DNA from: Phycisphaerae bacterium | Lineage (GTDB): Bacteria; Planctomycetota; Phycisphaerae; UBA1845; Fen-1342 | Reading direction: 5' to 3' | Assembly: GCA_050115495.1 (NCBI GenBank) | Contig: JASFQK010000069.1 | Location: 1 to 12,019, forward strand | DNA: 12,019 bases | In this document: positions 1 through 12,019 of the stretch, piece after piece | Layout: the number at the start of each line of letters is the position of its first letter | Position numbering within the stretch: the first letter of the stretch is position 1 | Notes under the pieces: generated by a model | Database searches by the model: none | Told to the model about the DNA's origin: nothing | Seen by the model: only the letters and a program-made list of their open reading frames with translations | Made by a program: the position numbers and the translations under genes

Positions 1-300
1 ACGTCCTTCTGCCGAAAGCGGATCGCCTGCCGCGAATGCCGGGATGCCGGGCCTACGGGCGACGCCTGGCGCGACCGCGAGGGCGCCCCCGAGACCTGCC
101 CGTTCGGCGTGACCGCCGACACGCTGCCCGAACCGGCCACGCCAACGACGGCCAGCTCAGAACCCTGCCCGGCGGCCGGCGCCGCGTGCGACCACTGGCG
201 AGCCCGGAAATGCCACCTCGACCCCGCCGACTCGCGGTGCCTGTCGGACCTGCGCTTCAAAGGGCCCGCCAGCGACTGCCCGCTGGGCTGGCGGAAGTAG
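1..300 (+). CDS. Cys-rich small hypothetical protein, 5' truncated by the window edge
   Basis: Frame +1 is open from base 1 to TAG at 298-300 (99 codons): TSFCRKRIACRECRD...ETCPFGVTADTLPEPATPTTASSEPCPAAGAACDHWRARKCHLDPADSRCLSDLRFKGPASDCPLGWRK. It has 9 Cys, strongly G/C-ending codons, and two modules ending CPFG and CPLG. The track's 109..300 ORF is only its 3' part. Confidence 0.7.
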   Translation, partial: TSFCRKRIACRECRDAGPTGDAWRDREGAPETCPFGVTADTLPEPATPTTASSEPCPAAGAACDHWRARKCHLDPADSRCLSDLRFKGPASDCPLGWRK

Positions 301-555
301 CGGGTCGGCCCTCGCGGGGCTATCTTTGGTCTCGAGCACACGGCGGTTTGGCCGCCTCGGCTCTCGCGCGCGACTTTTGCTACGACAGCTTTGGCAGCGG
401 CCGTTTTCCGGCCAGGGTATGTGCGCTTGCGTGGCGTGCTGGCAGTTTGTCCGACCCGCCTCGAGAGACAACGACCGCCTACACGGCAGCCGTAACGTTG
501 GGTGGGGACGCTGTACAGCGGAATCACAAGACGGAGCGGTGGCAGAGTGCCCATC

Positions 556-608
556 TCAGGCCAGTCGGGTTAAGCTACGCTTGGGTAGCCTAGCTCGGCC
601 AGGCCTGA
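556..608 (+). promoter_or_regulatory. Long imperfect stem-loop 24 nt upstream of the methyltransferase start
   Basis: TCAGGCC(556-562)/GGCCTGA(602-608), GTCGGGTTA(564-572)/TAGCTCGGC(591-599) with three G-U pairs, and GCTAC(574-578)/GTAGC(585-589) around a 6-nt loop, 21 pairs in all. The structure is seen directly; the function is unknown. Confidence 0.45.
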
Positions 609-632
609 CTCGAATATGATGTCGAGAGCAAC

Positions 633-3224
633 GTGGAGGAGATCGCCGTCGCGTCGCCACCTGAAGATTCCGCTGCCGCGTTGAGACCGCTGCTCGAGGA
701 GTGCGGCTACACGGGAACGTGCTTGGCCGCGCGCTACTCCGTGGGCGCACAGACGTTCCCACTGGTCGGTTTTGCGGGCAAGCCGTGGGACAGCCGGTCG
801 GCGTGCATCGCGGTTGTGGACACCGGTGGTGACCCGTGCGCTGCGGCCGCGTCCTGTCGGGAGCTCGGAGCGCCGATCGTGTGGGTGCGGTACAACGGGA
901 CCATCGACTGGTGGACGCAGCACGAGCAGAGCCCGAGCCGGTTTGCGTCGCGACCGGTGGCCGAGTTTCCTCAGCTGGTTCGCGAGTATCAGGCCGACCT
1001 CGCGCCGACCGAGGTGTATCGGCTCAAGACGCTGGGCCGGCTGCCCGGGGCGCGGCAATTGGACTTTATCGATGTCGGGCTGATGCCGCTGCTGGAAGCA
1101 CGGGCGGGCAAGGAGCTTGGCGGTCTGGTGGAAGACATGACGCGTGCCGTGCTGCTTGGCTTGAGGCTGCGCAGCCCCGGCAAACAGCGCATGCGCGAAG
1201 TGTTCACCGCCGTCTTCCGGCTGCTGGCCGGAAAGATCCTGCACGACAAGCGGGTCCGTGGGTTCGCGACGCTCGCGCTCGACGATCCGGCCGCCGTGCT
1301 GACCGCCGTGCAACGGCACTACAACGCCGGCGAACCTGCCCCGCATCTGGACCACACGTGGCGGACGGCGCTGGCGAGGGCGTGCGAACTCATCGCGGGC
1401 TTCGGCGACGTGCGCACCGTGTCGCCCGAGGCGCTCGCGTACGTTTACGAGCACACGCTGGTCAGCAAGCCACTCCGCAAGAAGCTGGGCATCCACGCCA
1501 CCCCGCTCTACTTGGTGGACTACGTCCTTTGGCAGCTCTACGACTGGATTCGCGAGATTCCCGCGGCCGACCGCCACGTGTTTGAGCCAGCGTGCGGGCA
1601 TTCGCCGTTCCAACTGGCGGCTCTGCGGATGCTGCGGCTGGAAATGCAGGGAGACTCGGACGAGGCGGTGCATACGTACCTGAAGCAGCATGTCCACGGC
1701 GTGGAGATCGACGATTTCGCCCGCGAGATCGCCCGGCTGTCACTCACGCTGGCGGACATCCCGAACCCCAACGGCTGGGACCTGCAGGCCGCCGACATGT
1801 ACGCTTCGGATATCCTGGCCGAGCAGGCCGGGCACTGCCGCATCCTGCTCAGCAATCCGCCTTATGAGCGTTTTGATCCCGCCGAAAAGAAGGTGTACGC
1901 CGCCGCCGGCTATCCCGTGCGGCGATCCAAGGCGGTCGAACTGCTAGACCGCACGCTCCCGCACCTGGCGCCCGGCGCGGTGTTTGGCGTGGTGGCGCCA
2001 CAGGGCGTACTCCAAAGCAAGGAGGCGAAAGACGTTCGTACACTGTTGCTGCGAGAATTCGAGATTCGCGAAGTGTGCATGTTCGCGGACAAGGTATTCG
2101 AGGAAGGGGATGCCGAGACTGCCGTGATCTTGGGGCGGCGGCGTCCAGACGCCGGAACTGCAGCGAAACAGACAACGTTCCGTCGCGTTCGCGAGGATTC
2201 CATCGCCCAGTTTGCTGCGGACTACTCGTTCGACTCGGAACACGTCGCATCAGCGGCGCAGCTCAAGGCGCATCGCGACAAAGACCTATACGTCCCCGAC
2301 CTCCCCGACGTGTGGGAGCGCACCAGGGGAAACCCTACGCTCGGCACAGTCGCGGACATCGGCGAGGGATTCTCGTTTGCACACAAGGGGTTGATCGAGA
2401 AGGCGCAGGCCGCCGGCAAACGACGGACGTCGGACGCAGTGCCCGCCTACCTAGCCGGCGTGGGCGACTTGTCGATCTGGGAGGTTCCCGAGTGCGTGTG
2501 GCTCAGCTCGAAGCGTACTCCGGTTGAACCGTGGCGCAGCGGCGACCACACCGGAAAGGCCCAGATCCTGGTCAATCACGCACGCGTGATGCGCGGGCCG
2601 TGGCGAATCAAGGCTCTGCTGGATCGAAGTGGGCGCGCGGCCATCAAGAAATACGTGACGGTCCGCCCCAGGAAAGGCGGACCGGCAATCACGTTCCTTT
2701 GGGCGCTGCTAAACTCCCCCGTTGCGAACGCCTACGTTCACTGCCACACGTTCCGCCGAGACATCTACGTGAGCGTGCTCGCATCGTTCCCCCTGCCGGT
2801 TCACTGGCAAGCGCACGTAGCGTCCGTTGTTTCGGCGGCCAATGCGTATCTGCAACTCGTGTGCGAACCAGAGGCGTTCGAATTGCAGTCGGAACAGAAC
2901 CCCGCTGTCTGCCAGGCGCTCCTGCGCATGGATGCCGCGGTGACGCGCGCCTATGCGCTGCCGGTCCGGCTCGAACGGGAGCTGCTCGATCTCTTCCGGC
3001 TGCCGGCGGAGAAGAAGGAGCGGCGGCGGCGTAAAGGCGTCGGATGCATGTTCGGCGACTACTTCCCGGCCGACTTCGAGTCGCTGATCCCGCTGCACAA
3101 GTACGTCGCGGCCGGCTACCAGCGCTCCACGGTGAATGCCGTCACTGCACGGTTGAAGGCGGGGGAGTCGGACACCGTGCTGCGAGACCTGCGAACGGCC
3201 GCGGATGCATTTGGGGGAGACTGA
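633..3224 (+). CDS. N6-adenine (amino) DNA methyltransferase, gamma class, Type IIG/Eco57I-like architecture: degenerate N-terminal nuclease-like domain + MTase + probable target-recognition region
   Basis: 863-aa ORF with a GTG start. Motif X RKKLGIHATP (1476-1505), motif I FEPACGHSPF (1581-1610), motif II GVEID and motif IV NPPY (1854-1865) occur in the order X-I-II-IV. They are followed by a TRD-like region and the helical ending MDAAVTRAYAL...ELLDLF typical of Type IIG-like proteins. Confidence 0.9.
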   Translation: MEEIAVASPPEDSAAALRPLLEECGYTGTCLAARYSVGAQTFPLVGFAGKPWDSRSACIAVVDTGGDPCAAAASCRELGAPIVWVRYNGTIDWWTQHEQSPSRFASRPVAEFPQLVREYQADLAPTEVYRLKTLGRLPGARQLDFIDVGLMPLLEARAGKELGGLVEDMTRAVLLGLRLRSPGKQRMREVFTAVFRLLAGKILHDKRVRGFATLALDDPAAVLTAVQRHYNAGEPAPHLDHTWRTALARACELIAGFGDVRTVSPEALAYVYEHTLVSKPLRKKLGIHATPLYLVDYVLWQLYDWIREIPAADRHVFEPACGHSPFQLAALRMLRLEMQGDSDEAVHTYLKQHVHGVEIDDFAREIARLSLTLADIPNPNGWDLQAADMYASDILAEQAGHCRILLSNPPYERFDPAEKKVYAAAGYPVRRSKAVELLDRTLPHLAPGAVFGVVAPQGVLQSKEAKDVRTLLLREFEIREVCMFADKVFEEGDAETAVILGRRRPDAGTAAKQTTFRRVREDSIAQFAADYSFDSEHVASAAQLKAHRDKDLYVPDLPDVWERTRGNPTLGTVADIGEGFSFAHKGLIEKAQAAGKRRTSDAVPAYLAGVGDLSIWEVPECVWLSSKRTPVEPWRSGDHTGKAQILVNHARVMRGPWRIKALLDRSGRAAIKKYVTVRPRKGGPAITFLWALLNSPVANAYVHCHTFRRDIYVSVLASFPLPVHWQAHVASVVSAANAYLQLVCEPEAFELQSEQNPAVCQALLRMDAAVTRAYALPVRLERELLDLFRLPAEKKERRRRKGVGCMFGDYFPADFESLIPLHKYVAAGYQRSTVNAVTARLKAGESDTVLRDLRTAADAFGGD

Positions 3225-3227
3225 CGG

Positions 3228-3791
3228 GTGCGTGACTATCTCATCGATACGCAGATCATCCGTTACTGGTATGACATCGCGTGCCCGCAGCACGCCGCGG
3301 TAATTGGAAACGTGCAGAAGCTGCAAGCCCTCGCCGGATCGGCCGAACACCAACCGCGGCTGCTGGTTTCCGTCATCACGCTGGGTGAGATCGAGTTCGG
3401 CCACCGCGTTCAGCAACACGACCATCCTGCGGCGCAGGAGGCCTATCTGCGATTCGTCAACGAGCAGCTTCCCGATCGTCTGGAGCTCACCGGCGATGCG
3501 GCAGCAGCTTACGGCAGGCTTCGTGCGCGGTTGTTCAACAAGCACGCCCCCGGGGGCATGAGGAAGCCGAAGATGCGGCCCGAGCAACTCATCGACCCCG
3601 CCACGTCGCTCAACCTGCAAATCCAGGAGAACGACCTGTGGCTCTGCGCTCAGGCCGTTGGGCATCGATTGGTGCTGGTCAGCAACGATGCCATGAAGCC
3701 AATCATGGCGATCGCCGAGGGAGTGAATCCGCCGCTGTTGGTGGAGAACTGGGCTCTGCCTGGAGCCGTTACCCCCAACGCCCCCGCATGA
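3228..3791 (+). CDS. PIN-domain (VapC-like) ribonuclease
   Basis: 187 aa. Motifs YLIDTQII, VSVITLGEIEFG, AYGRLRARL, ENDLWLCAQA and LVLVSND; the four PIN acidic residues are present (D7, E54, D136, D154). The GTG start is 3 nt after the MTase TGA, with GGGGAG just upstream as a possible ribosome-binding site. Confidence 0.92.
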   Translation: MRDYLIDTQIIRYWYDIACPQHAAVIGNVQKLQALAGSAEHQPRLLVSVITLGEIEFGHRVQQHDHPAAQEAYLRFVNEQLPDRLELTGDAAAAYGRLRARLFNKHAPGGMRKPKMRPEQLIDPATSLNLQIQENDLWLCAQAVGHRLVLVSNDAMKPIMAIAEGVNPPLLVENWALPGAVTPNAPA

Positions 3792-4191
3792 TGAAGTGCG
3801 GCAGCAACCAGCATCATGCCGGCGCTGGCGCTGACCGAGCGGGTCGAAGTCGACGTCACGGCCTTCGGCGACGCAGCTCTCGATCCAACCGGCCATCATC
3901 TCAGTAACCGCCGGCCCACCCGTTCGACCGACCGCTGGCGCCATACAGGGTTGGTTTGGCCAGTTTCAAGCTGTAGAGCTGGGCGTCGATACCACCTCGG
4001 CCCCGGATTCTCCTGCACAGCCCTCAATGTGGGCGGAGTCTGGCGGAAGACTTGCTGTCGCGACGGTGCGGTACATGCTGAATACGGCGGCAGCCACGAT
4101 GCGGACGGCTGAAGCTATGCGCCCCCATCGAGTCCAGATGCCCCGTGCCGCTGTGACATTCTCACTCAGCGTCTTCCTCGTGGGGTGAGCT

Positions 4192-4209
4192 CTTCGCGCA
4201 TGCGCGAAG
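4192..4209. repeat. Perfect 18-bp palindrome CTTCGCGCATGCGCGAAG
   Basis: The sequence equals its own reverse complement over 18 bp and lies in the intergenic spacer. Confidence 0.85.
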
Positions 4210-5066
4210 GACTGGCGCATGTTGCGGTTGTTCGCGCAGTTGAATCGGCATTCACGGAGCTGCGGCAAGCCCATTGCTGTGCTGACAGATCGCTGGTCAC
4301 TGTGGCCGCGACGAACACAAGGAACACGGACAACACGGCGTTGCCGTCCATAAGTGCTGTGTTTGCAGGACTCCGCAGAGCGCCGGGCGCTCGTGAACAG
4401 CCATTGGGGTCGGTTGCGGTCGTGGTTGACCAGAGCTGCCCGTGGCGCACATGGGATGAAGTGTCGGCGTGCTGCTGTTCGTGGCGTCGTCGATACTGCT
4501 TTCTACCCCGACCAGCGAACTCGAAGTCACGGACGGACCGTCACTTGCAGCGTGTGGCCCTTCGGCACTCCGCGGGTCAGACAGATCTCCATCTCTTATT
4601 GATGTGCGGATGTCGTGTGACGGCGGCTGCGGTTCCTCTCATTCTATGCGGCCGACATTGCCTGGGTGCCCTGATCACGGAAGGACGCTGCAAGCGTCAC
4701 GGCGTCACGCGCCAGGCCGCAGTACGTCCGAAGTGATGCAAAACCTCTCCCGACCGTCACTTGTGTCGCCTCGGCGCGATCTTTGCGTCTCCTGAACGAA
4801 GTGCGATCGTCGAATGCTCGGTCGTCATAGGACCATACACAGAACCGACCGCCGTTCGCGTGAATCTCCGACGAAACCCGTATTCTCCGAAACAACGAAA
4901 AGCTTGCTCCCACCATACGAACAGGGAGCTTTGAGGGATCTTAATGGCGGCCCCCTTCCCTCGGGTGTTGCGCGCGCGTAATATGGGAGCAGTCAGGCAG
5001 GGGAGGTGGCTCTTGCGCGAGACGGCGCGGGCGCCCTGCTTGGAGGGTATTCTAAGGGGACCAGCA

Positions 5067-6431
5067 ATGCATAGCATGCAGCGCGTAATGGTGGGGGCCA
5101 TCGTCACGATTGCAGGGGCGGTGGCGTTGAGCGCATCGTCATCGGCGCAAGCGCCGGCGAATGCGTCTCGAGGATCGTCGCAGACGTTTGACACGTCCGG
5201 TTTCGCTACCGAGTGCGGTATCGTTGAGACTGAGGTGGGGGGGGCTGCCTTGGGACGTTTCACCCGCGCTGAACTGCTAGTGATGATGGGGCGATCCTCC
5301 GCGGCAACAGGACGGTTCGGCGTCTCTGCGGCCGCGTACTTGACGTTCCTGAACGAGTTCGGATTGCGGCACGAGTGGGCTGAGCGCGTGTCGTTGCGAC
5401 TCATCGACAGTCTCGCTCCGCTGAAGCTCGACGTCGTTGACGTCATGTTCTCGACAGACGGCCCGCAGTTCAGGCCGGCTTGGCGGATGGGGTACGTGCC
5501 GGACACCGCCCAACTTGAACAAGCCGTGACGGTGTGTGAGACCCTTGCTGCCGAGTTGGAGCAAGAGGCCGCGCGGGCGACGGTGCTTCTCAAGCTCGGC
5601 TGGATCCAGCGTGCGAGAGGCGACTGGGACGCGGCCACGCGAGCCTGGGACCGTGCCGCTGTCGCGGCGCCACGGGGGTCCAATCAGGCGACGCAGGCGC
5701 TGTCGTTGGCTGCGGAGAATTGCGAGTGGCTCGGCCATCCGACGGAAGCGATCGCACGACTGGAGCAGATCGTACAAGCACGTGGGGAAGACGCGATGAC
5801 CCCCGAGACACGATCGCGAATCGAACGTCTGCGCCGGGAGGCGGGGCGCGATGAGGCTTGGTTGGCAGATCCCGTAGCGGGGTTCCAGCGTGAGGGCGAA
5901 ACGAACGGCGCCGCGGACCCGAGCGCACGGTACGTGGAGGCAGCGACTTGGCTGAAACGAAGGGGGCAGTTCCCAGTCCTCGCTAAGCTCGCCTGGTGGG
6001 CATCCAGAGAAGCAAAGTGGCCGTTATCCGTTCAGTTGAGCGTACTCGGCGACCTGGCTGACGCCTCGCTGGCCGGAGGTACCGATGAAGGGCGTGTGGT
6101 TGCCGCGGAGGCTTATGCGAGCATCATCGCCGCTTCAGAGGAGGAATCCTGGATCTTGCCGGCTGCTGTGCGCCGTAGTGCCCTGTTGCGCGTACTACAT
6201 CGACCGGGCGATGCGCTGTCCACGATTGAATCGACTGAACAGCGGTTGCGGAATGCGGAGATCTGGGAGACCACGCTTGTGCCGGAGAAGGTACGTGTGC
6301 TCCTGGACTTGGGTGACATGGAAGCAGCCAGGACGCTGGTGGACGACTTCGGCGTAAGGCACTCTGATCATCCGGAACTGCCGGCGCTTCGCGATCTCGT
6401 GCAGCAGGCCAGCAAGCGGGAGGGCAAGTGA
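5067..6431 (+). CDS. Exported tetratricopeptide-repeat (TPR-like) protein
   Basis: Same frame as track ORF 4944..6431. ATG 5067 is preferred because AAGGGGA lies just upstream and it opens a Sec-type signal peptide (MHSMQRVMVGAIVTIAGAVALSASSSAQA). TPR-like helical units include VLLKLGWIQRARGDWDAATRAWDRAAVAAP, ALSLAAENCEWLGHPTEAIARLEQIV and KVRVLLDLGDMEAARTLVDDF. Confidence 0.8.
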   Translation: MHSMQRVMVGAIVTIAGAVALSASSSAQAPANASRGSSQTFDTSGFATECGIVETEVGGAALGRFTRAELLVMMGRSSAATGRFGVSAAAYLTFLNEFGLRHEWAERVSLRLIDSLAPLKLDVVDVMFSTDGPQFRPAWRMGYVPDTAQLEQAVTVCETLAAELEQEAARATVLLKLGWIQRARGDWDAATRAWDRAAVAAPRGSNQATQALSLAAENCEWLGHPTEAIARLEQIVQARGEDAMTPETRSRIERLRREAGRDEAWLADPVAGFQREGETNGAADPSARYVEAATWLKRRGQFPVLAKLAWWASREAKWPLSVQLSVLGDLADASLAGGTDEGRVVAAEAYASIIAASEEESWILPAAVRRSALLRVLHRPGDALSTIESTEQRLRNAEIWETTLVPEKVRVLLDLGDMEAARTLVDDFGVRHSDHPELPALRDLVQQASKREGK

Positions 6432-9400
6432 TGTACAAGGCCAGGAAGACAATGTCCATCGTCACGTTGTTTATCGCGGTCACGTTGAGCGCCTCGGCGG
6501 CGGCTCAGATTACGTCCAACGCCGGCGACGGCGTGCTGAATGCGCCGTATCGCGGAACGATCACGTCGCTGCGCGAGTTGTGCGCCGACATCCCCTATGG
6601 AGAGGTGAAGACTCACTGCGAGCCGCTCTTCGTAGACACGAACTACATAACCAGTAGCACATACAGCGTGTGGGTGCTGCAGGAAACCGCCGACGATCAG
6701 TCCTGGGATCGAAGTGTGATTCGGCTCTTTGAGGGTGTCGATGGGAGTGGTGCCGAACTGGACCTAACCGGGACGAGCCAGGCGAATCCCATCACGCGCT
6801 CCGTATCCGCCGACGATTTTGTGCGCATGTCGGTCAAGGCGATCGGCACCCGGACGACGGAACCGCTGAAGTTCCGGTTGCGCTTCTCCTATTCGATTAA
6901 CGGCACTCCCACGACGGCGACGCGGACGTTTGTCGTGGCACCAATCACTGGTTCATTCTCTGTGCTGCCGGGAGAAAGCGAGGCATTCCACCTGGGCACG
7001 CCGATTCTCGACGTGACGGCCGGGGCGGCTCACCTCATGGTGCCCGTCGGACGCACTGCCGAGATGATTGGAGCGACCTTCGAGGATAAGGACAACCGGC
7101 TCGGGCCGTCTGTCATGCAAACAGCGGATGTCCTCCTTCCCGGGGCCGCGGAGTCCGTGTTTATTCAAAACAGCTTGCAGTTCAAGCTGGGAGGGACTTA
7201 CGGCAAGACGGCTTGGGGCGCACCGTGGCCGGGACACTTGATCGGCTACTACAGCTCAGGTGACACATGGGGGCCGGATGCCACCCACTACGATTCAGAC
7301 GCCCCGACCGGCCAAGATGGCGTGCGCTGCTATGACCGCATCCGCCCGCGGGACTTGGCGAACGCGCATCCTGCCACGCAGCAGTTGACGTACGATGGCA
7401 GCGACCTTGTTACGCAGATCCATGACGGCGCGAGCCCCCATAATGTGATCACTCTGCAGCGCAGCGTTGGCGTCGTGACGCGTATTACGACTTCAGACGG
7501 GCGTGGCTGGGATATTGGCAGTGATCAAGTCGACGGGTGGATCACCTCGGTCGAACCAGACAGCGGTAAAGGGGCACGTTTCTTTGTACACAACGCCGCG
7601 GGCCGCGTCACGCAGGTCAAGGACGCCAATGACCAGGTGATGTACGAGTATGTCTACGCGAATGATCCAACAGGTCTGCCGACCAAGCTCACTACGGAAC
7701 GCCGGTATATCCAAGCCGACGGCGAGCTGCGTGACGCTGTAGTCCATGAGACGATTGGGGACTACCACTTGCGAAGGAAGGAATTCACGGGTAGCGGTGA
7801 GTATCGGCAGTATGACTTCTTCTACGACGAGGCGGATTCGCTGAGACACCGGTTGGCCTGTGTGCGAACCTACCGCGATCCTAACGGCGCCGACCCGCCC
7901 CACTACGATACTATCTACACGCATGATATCAACAAGCCGGCAGGAGCGATGGTCATCACACAGATCACACTGCCGGATCTATCCACGATCGCCTATGAGT
8001 ACGACCATCACCTCGAGGCAGGCACGGTGCACTTCGGGTTTCGGAGCAAGACAACGCACACCGGGGCGGGGGGCTCTCTCGTCACGTACGATGTCGATCA
8101 TGACTTTCTGTACGTTAACGCGCTTGAAGAGACGCGCCTTTATCATCGACCACGCATCGTCGCCGAACGCGATGGGCTCGGACATGAGGTTGGGTACCAG
8201 TACGAAGAAGGGGGTGTGGACAGCGATCTCGATGGTCGGAGTGATGGTCTGACTGGGGAGAAATCGAATGACCTGCTGCGCCGCTTCGGTCCGACGATTG
8301 CGGAGGGTTGTTCGGGAACGCGCGTGCCGGAAGCGCGCTACTATTACTACAACTATTACGACCCAGAGCCGGTACGGCGCGTGCTCAAACGGGTTGAAGT
8401 GGATTATGACGACGGACTCTGTCGCAACACGGAGTACGAATACGATGACCTGTTGCGACGCACGGCAGTCGTCGTCGACCGCGGCGGCAAGGACATCCGA
8501 ACGGAGTACCAGTACGTCGATGATGCGCCGACACAGGATCGAATCGTCATCGATCCGGACGATTACTGGACGAAGACGCAGTTTGACGCGGACGGGCGTG
8601 TGTCGAACGTTCGCCGGTATCTTGACCCAGGTGGAGCAACGGGCAACTACTACCAGACCGCGTATCAATACGACGTCAACGGCCGGCTCGAATACGAGAT
8701 TATCGACAACAAGGACCAGGCTGGGGTAGCCCTTAGTCCGGCGACGATCACGACGCAGTACACGCACGATCGGCTGGGCCGGCTCACCATGCGCGAGGTC
8801 GATCCGAGCGGGATCGGCCAGGAGTCACACACTGATTACAATTGGCTGAATGATGTGACGCAGACGTACGATACGTCTGGCCGTGGCATGCAACGTGAGT
8901 ACGACGGACGGGGACTGGTCAAGTACGAGACTCCAGTCACAGCGCCCGAAACGCCCGTGGGGGCGTTGACAACGGAATTCACGTACGACGCTATGGGGCG
9001 GCTCAGGTTTACCGATCTCCCCACCGGTGCCCAGGACGAGATCATGTACGACGACTTCGGTCGTACGTGGAAGCAGATCCGGCATCCGGGACCGGATGGC
9101 GGGTCCACCATTACAAACGAGTTCGAGTACGACGCGGCCAGCCACGTTGAGCGCGGCCACGCATATGAGGACGACGGCCGGACAATTCGCCATCTGTCCG
9201 ACGTAACGCACGAATACGACGAAGGCGGTTTCCGTTACGAGTCGCGGCAGCGCCTGACCGCTGGCGACGACACCGCCTCGGATCCGCTTACGCAATGGAA
9301 ATTCGACTGGGCCGGCAACGTCATCGAGGAGCGGGCCAAGGGAGAGAGCGGACGGGGCGACGACGACCGCGTCATCACAACGTTGTACGACGCCGCAAAC

Positions 9401-12019
9401 CGCGTTGAGAGCACGCTTGACTCGGAAGATGGCGAGACGATCTACGACCGGGATGACCGCGGGAACGTTGAGCAGCTTCAAGTCAAGCTCACAGATCGTG
9501 CCTACGCCGTCACCGACACGATGTACGACGCCCTGAGCCGGGCGACGCGTGTGACGGATCCGCCGGACGCCACCGGCCTGAGGCATTATCGCGAGCGCTT
9601 CTACGACTCACGCGGTAACCTGAGACGCGAAACGGCGAAGGCGTACGGGGGAGACGCCGTGCAGACGGCGATCTCCGAGTACGACAATGCCGGCCGACTT
9701 GATTATCAAGCAATGCTGGATGACGCCGACGGGACGGCGCTAGCCGGCCGCGATGTCGACCGCGTCGTCGACTATGAGTACGACCAGGACGGTCGGCTGC
9801 GCTTCCGGACAACGTACAACAACGGCACGACATCGCCCCTGACGACCGAGACCACCTACGACAGTCTCGGCCGGGTCGACGTCGTCACGGATCCGTCGGG
9901 TAGTACGACCAGCAACGGATATGCGGCCAATGGACGCCTCAATCAGAGGACGGTTGACGATGGCTACGGCCCGCGCGTATTCACCTTTGGCTATGACGGT
10001 CACGACCGGGTTACATCACGGACTGCGGTCGGTGATGGCCGAACGCCCGCCCTGGTTACGTCATACGAGCTCGACGGCCTTGGCCGCGCGGTTCGTATCA
10101 CTGACCCGAAGGGCGTCATCACCCGAACCGACTATGACCTGACCGGCCAGCGTGTGGCCGTCGTGGAAAACGAAGGTGGCGGGGTGCTCGAACGCACCAC
10201 CAATTACGACTACGACCGACTCAACCAGCTCGTCACGCAAACGGCCGTCAACAAGTCCTCCAGCGGAACGCCGCTGGACGACCAGGTCACGCAGCACCGC
10301 TACGACACGCTCGGTCGGTTGGAGTGCACCGTCTACCCGGACAGCCTCGCCGATCCGGAGGACCCGGATTGCGTCGACTGCCTTCGCATGGCGTACGACC
10401 TGGGCGGCCGGCAGATCTTCCGCCACGATCAACGCGCCGTCGAGACGACCTACGTCCACGACGACCGCGGCCTGCTGATTTCGCGCACGACGGGTCGCGA
10501 CGTCGACACGTTCGGCTACGATGCGCTCGGTCGGATGACCTCTGCGAGCCGGGGCGATTCGCAGATCGAACGCGATTACACCGACCTCGGCGATCTCGAC
10601 TACGAGACTCAAACACTCGGCGGTCGTGCTGCGCGGACGGTCGACTATACGAGCGATCAGGCCGGTAACTGTACGCAGCTCCAGTACCCCAACGGCGCCG
10701 CGCTGACGTACACCGCCACGGCGTTGAACCAGGTGGACACGATCACGCTCGGCGTGAACCCGCTTGTTGAGTACGGCTACAAGGGAGACGGTCACCTGCT
10801 CGACTTCCGTCGCACGACGACGGACGAGCCGAGTGGTACGACCGTTTACGACACTGGTTTCGACTACGACATCCACCGCCGCACGACCGTGATCGAGAAC
10901 TACCTCGAGGTCGGCGGCCTACCGGATCTGATCGCCTCCTACGGCTTCACGCATGACGCCAACGGCAACCCGCTGACGCAGACGGCCGGCGGCTGGCCCG
11001 ATTTCGCGCCTGACGATCGGGTCTTCGCCGTCGACGATCTCGATCGGCTGACCGGCACGACCTATGACGAGCTCGGCAGCACCGAGTCCACGACGTTCGA
11101 CCTGCTCGGCAACCGGGAAATGCACACCGACCGGGCGGGCACGACGACGCCGTACGGCCCGGTGAACGCGGCGAACGAGTATCCGGCGATCGACGGATAC
11201 GCGTTGGCGTATGACGCAGCGGGCAATTTGATCGTCGACGAAGAGGGCCGGGAGTACGACTACGACGAGTTCGACCGCCTGACGGAAGTCCGGGACGTCG
11301 AAGAGGCCGTCCTGGTGCGGTACACGTACGACGCTCTGGGTCGGCGGGTGCTGAGCGAGTTTTCGCCGAACGATCCGCCGAATGCGTACACGATTCGGTA
11401 CGTGTACGACGGCCGCCGGATTATCGAGGAACGTGACGCCGCGGACGCGCTGACGTGTTATCACGTGAACGGGGCCCAGTTTATCGATGAACGGGTGGCG
11501 ACGTACCGGGTTGAGGAAGAGCGTTCGGCGGGTCCGGGAGCGTTCCCGGCTGGGGCCGGCGGGCGTTTGGGCGTGTTCACGTATTATCTGGAGAGTGGGA
11601 ACCACTCGGTGGTGGCGGTGGGCGACGCCGCCGGGTCGGTGGTGGAGCGGCTGGACTATGGTTCTGGGGGCGATTTCGGGGGCAGTGGGCCGGTCTACCT
11701 GATCGCCGACAGCAATTGCGACGGGCTGGTCAGCAACTTCGATATCACCCCGTTCCTGCTGGCGATGGAAGGTCGCGAGGGATGGGAGGCGTTGTACGAC
11801 TGCGACTACCTCTGCGCGAACGACCTGACCGGCGATGGCTTGGTGAACAACTTCGACCTCAGTCCGTTCATCAGTTGCCTGGCGGACGGTGGGTGTGGGA
11901 CGTGCACGCCGGTGGGGAGCGGTTCGGCTCCGCCGCCGACGGGGACGTTTGCGTTGCACGGTCGGCCGGTGGACGTGCTGGCGGACGGGAAGGTGCTGGT
12001 GTACGTGCGGGCGCGGTAC
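6431..12019 (+). CDS. Large secreted RHS/YD-repeat protein (probable polymorphic toxin carrier), 3' truncated by the window edge
   Basis: Manual translation from ATG 6431, which overlaps the TPR stop (TGATG), is open for 1863 codons to the last base. Signal peptide MYKARKTMSIVTLFIAVTLSASAAAQ. Many YD repeats, e.g. YQYDVNGRL, FTYDAMGRL, YEYDQDGRL, YDTLGRL, YTYDALGRRV. RHS-core-like end YYLESGNHSVVAVGDAAGSVVERLDY...FALHGRPVD...LVYVRARY. Absent from the ORF track because no stop falls in the window. Confidence 0.93.
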   Translation, partial: MYKARKTMSIVTLFIAVTLSASAAAQITSNAGDGVLNAPYRGTITSLRELCADIPYGEVKTHCEPLFVDTNYITSSTYSVWVLQETADDQSWDRSVIRLFEGVDGSGAELDLTGTSQANPITRSVSADDFVRMSVKAIGTRTTEPLKFRLRFSYSINGTPTTATRTFVVAPITGSFSVLPGESEAFHLGTPILDVTAGAAHLMVPVGRTAEMIGATFEDKDNRLGPSVMQTADVLLPGAAESVFIQNSLQFKLGGTYGKTAWGAPWPGHLIGYYSSGDTWGPDATHYDSDAPTGQDGVRCYDRIRPRDLANAHPATQQLTYDGSDLVTQIHDGASPHNVITLQRSVGVVTRITTSDGRGWDIGSDQVDGWITSVEPDSGKGARFFVHNAAGRVTQVKDANDQVMYEYVYANDPTGLPTKLTTERRYIQADGELRDAVVHETIGDYHLRRKEFTGSGEYRQYDFFYDEADSLRHRLACVRTYRDPNGADPPHYDTIYTHDINKPAGAMVITQITLPDLSTIAYEYDHHLEAGTVHFGFRSKTTHTGAGGSLVTYDVDHDFLYVNALEETRLYHRPRIVAERDGLGHEVGYQYEEGGVDSDLDGRSDGLTGEKSNDLLRRFGPTIAEGCSGTRVPEARYYYYNYYDPEPVRRVLKRVEVDYDDGLCRNTEYEYDDLLRRTAVVVDRGGKDIRTEYQYVDDAPTQDRIVIDPDDYWTKTQFDADGRVSNVRRYLDPGGATGNYYQTAYQYDVNGRLEYEIIDNKDQAGVALSPATITTQYTHDRLGRLTMREVDPSGIGQESHTDYNWLNDVTQTYDTSGRGMQREYDGRGLVKYETPVTAPETPVGALTTEFTYDAMGRLRFTDLPTGAQDEIMYDDFGRTWKQIRHPGPDGGSTITNEFEYDAASHVERGHAYEDDGRTIRHLSDVTHEYDEGGFRYESRQRLTAGDDTASDPLTQWKFDWAGNVIEERAKGESGRGDDDRVITTLYDAANRVESTLDSEDGETIYDRDDRGNVEQLQVKLTDRAYAVTDTMYDALSRATRVTDPPDATGLRHYRERFYDSRGNLRRETAKAYGGDAVQTAISEYDNAGRLDYQAMLDDADGTALAGRDVDRVVDYEYDQDGRLRFRTTYNNGTTSPLTTETTYDSLGRVDVVTDPSGSTTSNGYAANGRLNQRTVDDGYGPRVFTFGYDGHDRVTSRTAVGDGRTPALVTSYELDGLGRAVRITDPKGVITRTDYDLTGQRVAVVENEGGGVLERTTNYDYDRLNQLVTQTAVNKSSSGTPLDDQVTQHRYDTLGRLECTVYPDSLADPEDPDCVDCLRMAYDLGGRQIFRHDQRAVETTYVHDDRGLLISRTTGRDVDTFGYDALGRMTSASRGDSQIERDYTDLGDLDYETQTLGGRAARTVDYTSDQAGNCTQLQYPNGAALTYTATALNQVDTITLGVNPLVEYGYKGDGHLLDFRRTTTDEPSGTTVYDTGFDYDIHRRTTVIENYLEVGGLPDLIASYGFTHDANGNPLTQTAGGWPDFAPDDRVFAVDDLDRLTGTTYDELGSTESTTFDLLGNREMHTDRAGTTTPYGPVNAANEYPAIDGYALAYDAAGNLIVDEEGREYDYDEFDRLTEVRDVEEAVLVRYTYDALGRRVLSEFSPNDPPNAYTIRYVYDGRRIIEERDAADALTCYHVNGAQFIDERVATYRVEEERSAGPGAFPAGAGGRLGVFTYYLESGNHSVVAVGDAAGSVVERLDYGSGGDFGGSGPVYLIADSNCDGLVSNFDITPFLLAMEGREGWEALYDCDYLCANDLTGDGLVNNFDLSPFISCLADGGCGTCTPVGSGSAPPPTGTFALHGRPVDVLADGKVLVYVRARY
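11705..11881 (+). repeat. Duplicated EF-hand/dockerin-like module within the RHS protein
   Basis: DSNCDGLVSNFDITPFLLA (from 11708) and DLTGDGLVNNFDLSPFISC (from 11822) lie 38 aa apart. Both have the Dx[N/T]xDGxVxxxD Ca-binding loop plus helix pattern of dockerins. Confidence 0.85.

Follow-up and report, generated by a model that had tools for sequence, protein, structure and literature searches.

Nuclease-dead Type IIG-like methylases that carry exchangeable antitoxin-like tails and adjoin toxin genes

A methylase gene and a PIN gene in one cassette

The 12,019-nucleotide stretch of DNA analysed here (the window) is one whole contig, JASFQK010000069.1, of the genome of a Phycisphaerae bacterium (Planctomycetota; assembly GCA_050115495.1). 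It contains a gene for a Type IIG-like DNA adenine methyltransferase that carries a C-terminal antitoxin-like tail, and directly behind it, on the same strand, a gene for a VapC-like PIN ribonuclease. The initial annotation had placed the two genes 3 nt apart, and the list of open reading frames (ORFs) returns the same coordinates and the same 3 nt between the stop of the first and the start of the second. The features are as follows.

633..3224, + strand: gene for the Type IIG-like DNA adenine methyltransferase, whose C-terminus bears the antitoxin-like tail (ORF, GTG start, 863 aa)
660..1037, + strand: N-terminal restriction-nuclease-fold domain, about residues 10-135, without the E-x-K catalytic residues (structure and feature matches, motif columns)
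1581..1598, + strand: S-adenosylmethionine (SAM)-binding motif I, FEPACG, residues 317-322, then H-S-P in place of the usual glycine (alignment)
1854..1865, + strand: catalytic motif IV, NPPY, residues 408-411 (alignment)
2295..2807, + strand: target-recognition domain (TRD), about residues 555-725 (HsdS/TRD matches, exchange among close relatives)
3012..3221, + strand: tail A, residues 794-863, with a hinge RxKGVG at 800-804 and a distal effector-specific part at 827-863; predicted PIN antitoxin (co-fold, co-variation)
3228..3791, + strand: gene for the VapC-like PIN ribonuclease, PIN-A subfamily (ORF, GTG start, 187 aa)

The GTG at 633 is supported as the start of the methylase because close homologues open with the same 'MEE'. 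Both genes are under purifying selection, with ratios of nonsynonymous to synonymous substitution rates (dN/dS) of 0.11-0.24 in six valid pairs; the methylase gene gave 0.20 against locus L001 and the PIN gene 0.13-0.18, the PIN row of the pair L020-L021 being left out as out of frame. No sigma-70 promoter matched in positions 1-5000 of the window, and no second copy or other tail or effector was found in the source genome. As annotated initially, the window holds no separate restriction endonuclease, HsdR or HsdS gene, its remaining long ORFs being a TPR protein and an RHS protein.

The methylase scores above the Pfam cut-off for N6_Mtase over residues 268-538. Its structural model (predicted local distance difference test, pLDDT, 71; predicted template modelling score 0.55; pLDDT <50 at residues 315-387) finds its best Foldseek match in BpuSI, a Type IIG enzyme. 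VIA-align superposes CamA, M.BseCI and M.TaqI on residues 280-778 and extends the alignments of BpuSI and MmeI to residue 789, while HsdS/TRD chains match residues 555-776 with Z 10-12. At the N-terminus, residues 8-135 gave an Atlas feature match to MmeI_N of 0.91, template modelling (TM) scores of 0.73-0.75 with structures of the HSDR_N cluster, and VIA matches to an HsdR fragment (Z 9.0) and a putative restriction endonuclease domain (Z 6.3). In the Atlas rows the same nuclease-like fold also stands at the head of cyanobacterial ParA/CbiA-family ATPases and of a cluster of 308-aa cyanobacterial proteins (TM 0.87), which may be a further use of the domain.

We aligned the family starting from a profile search that returned 641 clusters with E up to 1e-30; the query and the 112 full-length sequences among the best 150 make up 113 rows. 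The columns of the E-x-K motif were placed by analogy with what we take to be the PD-(D/E)xK strand order of Type IIG enzymes. On the E-x-K strand, column 60 carries E, D or Q in 0/113 rows and column 62 carries K in 1/113; on the preceding strand, column 43 is D in 15/113 and E in 4/113, and even a loose [EQD]xK anywhere in residues 48-72 occurs in only 6/113 rows. Motif I is kept throughout (E/D in 113 rows, P in 112, G in 113), residue 324, after H323, being A in 59, G in 48 and S in 6, and motif IV reads N in 113/113, P in 112/113 and P in 113/113, followed by F (90), Y (22) or W (1). Judged from these columns, the nuclease is dead across the family while the methylase motifs are kept, which rules out an active Type IIG enzyme; together with the fold matches, this bears out the nuclease-dead Type IIG-like architecture first proposed from the single sequence. 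Methylase activity is predicted from the motifs, and stays a prediction because motif I deviates and residues 315-387 are poorly modelled. The TRD is exchanged among close relatives: between locus L015 and loci L011, L012 and L047 the core is 71-73% identical and the N-terminus 86-97%, against 32-37% in the TRD, and TRD identity falls below 45% in 4/35 close pairs.

The PIN protein matches the Pfam PIN family weakly (E 8e-4) and the VapC model at E 1.6e-5, far below its cut-off. Its structural model (pLDDT 89.8) has its best VapC structure match at E 7.5e-7, and the four acidic residues, described as intact at the outset, are so across the subfamily as well: D7 in 80, E54 in 80, D136 in 81 and D154 in 80 of 81 aligned PINs. 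An Argonaute match of the PIN (E 0.036) was taken as chance.

Conserved pairing and exchange of effectors

In a scan of GTDB genomes the best 80 of 147 methylase relatives were analysed, of which 7 end inside the methylase. Among the loci with a complete 3' end, a nuclease or toxin gene stands directly behind the methylase in 73/73, and the class of that effector can be predicted from the final 40-100 methylase residues:

Tail A, then PIN-A: 59/73 loci (the PIN is frameshifted in one and truncated by the end of the contig in another)
Helical tail H, then an HNH nuclease: 9/73 loci
VapB-like tail, then a canonical VapC: 1/73 loci
Stacked tails A+B, then PIN-B and PIN-A: 3/73 loci
Stacked tails A+B, then PIN-B only: 1/73 loci

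Four metagenome loci likewise have stacked A+B tails. Were a tail-B/PIN-B cassette to insert at the stop codon of the methylase, it would leave just this nesting, with the tails in the order A, B and the genes in the order B, A. In the reverse direction we took the best 80 of 333 metagenome loci with PIN-A, 77 of them with upstream DNA: a tail-A gene precedes PIN-A in 68, PIN-B in 8 and a transposase-like ORF in 1, so that PIN-A stands behind a tail-bearing gene or a stacked PIN-B in 76/77. The pairing that the initial annotation had read from one locus is thus conserved across genomes, and the two counts rule out chance adjacency. Three loci show states of decay: a tail A remnant without PIN-A (L026:2970-6256), a frameshifted PIN-A behind an intact methylase (L045:3090-3633) and the PIN-A with a transposase-like ORF upstream (L141).

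In a FastTree phylogeny built from 76 rows of the methylase core without the tail columns, parsimony counts 14 changes of effector class, and the seven tail-B loci are not clustered together; as many inner branches are weak, the tree shows shuffling and not the order of events. Tail and effector move as one cassette, which is swapped at the stop codon of the methylase. The family uses at least five effector types, this PIN being one of them.

The distribution of the methylase is patchy. In an evenly drawn sample of its own phylum it was found in 10/401 genomes, the source genome included, the complete loci carrying PIN-A-like genes (judged by a shared ENDLW motif), one HNH and one VapC; in another phylum it was found in 2/401. 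Named homologues are mostly from Planctomycetota, and three rhizobial plasmids carry the methylase, two with a PIN and one with a RES gene. The HNH effector was not found in 301 genomes of the class of the source organism with one query, and in 1/401 of the phylum. This patchiness, the insertion of the cassette among unrelated housekeeping genes, the plasmid copies near insertion sequences and Tn7-like genes, and the free exchange of toxins with different targets count in favour of an addiction module. Under that explanation the tail neutralises the toxin and nothing is sensed, the toxin having taken over from the restriction nuclease the role of post-segregational killer, by which a selfish methylase gene persists in the genome. 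We regard it as rather unlikely, and as the foremost competitor. It leaves unexplained why nearly every locus keeps, under purifying selection (dN/dS 0.13-0.24), an enzyme of 800 residues whose nuclease is dead, whose catalytic motifs are intact and whose TRD is exchanged, and why PIN-A almost never occurs with an ordinary small antitoxin.

The C-terminal tail as a predicted antitoxin

The initial annotation had described a toxin without an antitoxin. This stands as far as a separate gene is concerned: the 3-nt gap and the lack of any link between the ORFs before 633 and the PIN exclude a hidden small antitoxin gene upstream, and a separate small antitoxin gene with a DNA-binding domain was found in 0/77 metagenome PIN-A loci with upstream DNA. 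It does not stand for the function, an antitoxin-like module being fused to the methylase C-terminus. For co-folding, residues 794-863 and the PIN were each supplied as 81 rows of a paired alignment, in three runs with three controls. The scores were 0.87, 0.87 and 0.00, with 0.00 for the best control, on a mark that is reached by 116/157 solved and 2/215 mismatched pairs; at least 44% of contacts are shared between the runs, and the partner pLDDT is at least 40. In the predicted contact the last helix, 849-856, with the invariant A856, lies on PIN residues 7-9, 54-59, 133-135 and 152-154, which form the active site.

Tail A has no match to a Pfam family. Its distal part tracks PIN similarity after core similarity has been removed (partial rho 0.48 over 70 full-length pairs, by a permutation that ignores kinship), the highest value among five methylase regions, the other four giving 0.19-0.34. 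The modelled contact and the co-variation of tail and effector both support the earlier proposal that the methylase protein restrains the PIN, and the restraint is predicted to map to a discrete, swappable C-terminal tail. The fused antitoxin tail, which is common to the addiction explanation and to the autoregulatory and sensing explanations discussed below, is in our judgement very probably real.

Tails of other members resemble antitoxins. That of representative P0277 is an Xre_MbcA_ParS_C domain above the Pfam cut-off, and the plasmid methylase of Rhizobium sp. Q54 carries Xre/MbcA middle and C-terminal domains (below cut-off) as its tail and overlaps a RES gene; Xre-RES is a known pairing (PMC2701414). 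The tails of P0346, P0350 and P0379 match the C-termini of stand-alone cyanobacterial genes of 94 and 117 aa situated in front of PINs (in a set of 8445 ORFs, E 3e-9 and 3e-5), one of these with a weak ribbon-helix-helix (RHH) head. In G223, tail H likewise forms a small gene of its own in front of an HNH gene, with no methylase present (within the locus, E 7e-10). Tail B compared with three stand-alone cyanobacterial genes gave E 0.03 for one and nothing for two in a large database, a weak match. For tail A, the 7415 small ORFs of the loci include no gene that stands alone; 53 short profile matches were candidates, and all 8 inspected, mostly on longer contigs, turned out to be C-terminal fragments of methylases. 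Other tail types exist, with 34/113 representatives fitting none of four tail profiles; further types occur in P0358, P0314, P0323, P0366, P0298 and P0264, P0358 showing by eye a RelE/ParE-like segment fused after the tail and P0314 a DUF5678 below cut-off.

The tail could also dock its partner instead of blocking it, recruiting the nuclease as a replacement restriction subunit to unmethylated sites, where HNH would cut DNA and PIN the nascent RNA nearby. A dead N-terminal nuclease accompanied by a separate HNH gene, as in the 9/73 loci above, does resemble a two-subunit restriction enzyme. We nevertheless consider docking very unlikely: the model sets the tail over the PIN active site, tail H and HNH occur in G223 with no methylase, and the RES and canonical VapC effectors are paired with recognisable antitoxin tails.

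Three metagenome genes lack the methylase core and yet precede an intact PIN-A. Two of them, L134:2740-3993 and L136:403-1653, encode a 416-aa product with a UPF0175 antitoxin-type head, TRD and tail A, and the third, L114:961-1878, TRD and tail A alone. UPF0175 is a predicted antitoxin family associated with PINs (PMC5499597, PMC2701414). We count it and the three genes in favour of an ordinary type II toxin-antitoxin (TA) pair with an odd head, in which the methylase and TRD would do no more than replace RHH or AbrB as the autoregulatory domain that binds DNA. The core is missing, however, in only 3/68 metagenome tail-A genes (from the best 80 of 333 PIN-A loci), the catalytic motifs are invariant in the 113 representatives, and upstream of 633 no direct or inverted repeat stands out as an operator. 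A purely autoregulatory head accordingly seems to us quite improbable.

A proposed trigger and its relation to known systems

We propose, with slightly better than even confidence, that the cassette is a two-gene operon in which the methylase tail blocks the PIN RNase and the methylase acts as a DNA-reading trigger that releases the toxin on unmethylated foreign DNA. The proposal begins with the architecture: intact methylase and PIN motifs, a dead nuclease motif and a tail swapped together with its effector. In the second step tail A is predicted to cover the active site of the PIN in the way VapB covers that of VapC; taken together, these two steps are highly probable. The enzyme would then methylate the sites of the host, which would keep the complex quiet. 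Binding of many unmethylated sites on phage or plasmid DNA would move the recognition domain, and the tied tail would free the RNase; as a second choice, a DNA mimic such as Ocr could be the trigger. Cleavage of tRNA or other RNA would finally stop translation and abort the infection.

Sensing is favoured because the methylase motifs are invariant while the nuclease is dead family-wide, and a general suicide output rather than site cleavage fits because the effectors attack RNA, DNA or nicotinamide adenine dinucleotide, the last being what we take RES to do. We prefer unmethylated DNA over a DNA mimic as trigger for two reasons: exchange of the TRD implies that it matters which sequence is read, and Type IIG enzymes undergo a rearrangement of the C-terminal domain, the one directly in front of the tail, when they bind specifically. 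BpuSI has to rotate its C-terminal domain to bind DNA, Type IIG enzymes work best with several sites, and TRD exchange among them is a mark of selection for new specificities (all described in PMC4081073). More widely, the family may represent a new class of defence derived from restriction-modification (R-M), in which Type IIG enzymes have turned into programmable sensors that mark self by methylation and hold captured TA modules (PIN, HNH, RES, RelE-like, sometimes two stacked) at the C-terminus until unmethylated DNA or an anti-restriction protein frees them; we give this generalisation an even chance.

Several observations weigh against this trigger reading. The deviating H-S-P in motif I and the pLDDT below 50 around it count against methylase activity, and the genes without a core in L134, L136 and L114, with PIN-A intact, imply that methylation is dispensable for restraint. 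One of the three co-fold runs scored 0.00, and a pass may reflect likeness to VapBC complexes already solved. The loci are related and so not independent, which applies also to the permutation behind the partial correlation. The G+C content of the cassette (0.62-0.68) is close to that of the genome (0.667), no recurrent third gene was found in 80 loci, and no phage carrying the methylase matched in INPHARED or three IMG/VR scans. A plausible defence neighbour lies within 5 kb in 7/53 loci, a figure that stands without a background control and comes from scanning 249/357 flanking ORFs against PADLOC (L054-L079 left out; kinases and generic SAM enzymes not counted). The enrichment in defence islands expected initially gains weak support from this.

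The initial annotation had recognised no named system in the pair, and none was matched in PADLOC or NCBIfam. PADLOC 2.0 returned only generic methylase matches (best E 1e-15) and none for the PIN; BREX and MADS (PglX, MAD2) were rejected at NCBIfam scores of 23-25 bits against cut-offs of 400-720, with flanks lacking core genes. No description of a methylase-antitoxin fusion was found in full-text literature, PADLOC and NCBIfam, a coverage that lies outside subscription journals, DefenseFinder, TADB and REBASE. The accessible parts of a BREX survey (PMC12839542) and of papers on Menshen (PMC12065111), DefensePredictor (PMC13092281) and PglX (PMC11341690) describe PIN or inactive-nuclease domains in other systems and not in this one. 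It is unlikely that the system is already in print, and the architecture, in which nuclease-dead Type IIG-like methylases bear antitoxin tails that are fused, can be swapped and can be stacked, is well supported.

The closest relatives in build are the single-chain Type IIG/IIC/IIL enzymes (BpuSI, MmeI, DrdV), in which a nuclease fold, a helical linker, a gamma-class NPP(Y/F/W) methylase and a TRD follow in the same order (PMC4081073). As in Type IIG/IIC, one chain here joins a gamma-class methylase, with motif I ahead of NPPY/F/W, to a specificity domain at the C-terminus, but E-x-K is missing in the 113 members, so that the active N-terminal PD-(D/E)xK nuclease of those enzymes is lacking; the family differs further in its extra C-terminal tail beyond residue ~790, where the alignments of BpuSI and MmeI end, and in its obligatory downstream toxin gene. 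With VapBC it shares a PIN with D-E-D-D and the VapC fold, an abutting upstream partner gene and a predicted helix across the active site. Here, in contrast, there is no small RHH/AbrB antitoxin gene, the predicted neutralising segment is fused to an 800-residue methylase, and PIN-A is ~50 residues longer than the matched VapC structures.

If sensing holds, the release of an RNase tied to R-M or anti-restriction proteins would be shared with PrrC/EcoprrI and PARIS (PMC12707154). Unlike in those systems, there is no HsdR/M/S locus and no ABC-ATPase sensor with a HEPN/TOPRIM nuclease in the window and no recurrent third gene in the loci, the R-M-like protein cannot itself restrict, and an antitoxin tail, swappable and covalently attached, would provide the coupling. 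Three unconserved type I hsdM-hsdS operons with a PIN gene but without hsdR or antitoxin have been described in a survey of PIN proteins (Matelska 2017, PMC5499597), which states that PINs were not observed with type II systems and that a direct interaction of TA with R-M had not been demonstrated. Those operons resemble the present cassette in a PIN transcriptionally tied to a methylase without restriction enzyme or antitoxin gene, whereas the pairing here is conserved, single-chain and tail-mediated. BREX PglX/BrxX is likewise an MmeI-like methylase without nuclease activity, to which the structure matches, and PglX reads unmethylated sites and binds Ocr (PMC11341690); here, however, no brx or pgl genes are nearby, and PglX is without the nuclease-fold domain of the present methylase.

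Genes of this kind are currently annotated merely as orphan 'N-6 DNA methylase'. What they encode is a covalent join of the two commonest selfish or defence modules of bacteria, an R-M enzyme and a TA pair, and the link between methylase and toxin is a defined tail of 40-70 residues, hence directly testable. Should sensing prove true, R-M recognition would be wired straight to abortive infection, self/non-self methylation could trigger cell-wide toxins rather than local cutting, and DNA specificity (TRD) and toxic output (tail and toxin) could be changed separately on a two-gene chassis. Even without phage sensing, the family amounts to a natural collection in which uncharacterised PIN and HNH toxins can be found beside their cognate antitoxin tails.

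Some surroundings of the cassette deserve mention. Genes resembling HNH_3-AP2 homing endonucleases lie near it in L025, L032, L037, L044 and L065, three of which were scanned; housekeeping genes apart, no other kind of neighbour recurs. The Rhizobium sp. Q54 plasmid copy sits behind another Type IIG-like gene and a vapBC-like pair, and an Agrobacterium plasmid copy beside Shedu and Tn7-like genes; the plasmid copies with these contexts are L163 (LR606151.1) and L165 (NZ_CP116694.1). In the window itself, a Cys-rich ORF of 63 aa lies at the contig start (109-300), and the ~1.1 kb behind the PIN gene (3792-4943) is without a convincing gene. The TPR-containing protein (4944-6431) overlaps the start of the RHS-repeat protein (6428-12019), which has at least 1864 aa and runs off the contig, its final part showing a repeated Asp-rich stretch that by eye looks dockerin-like.

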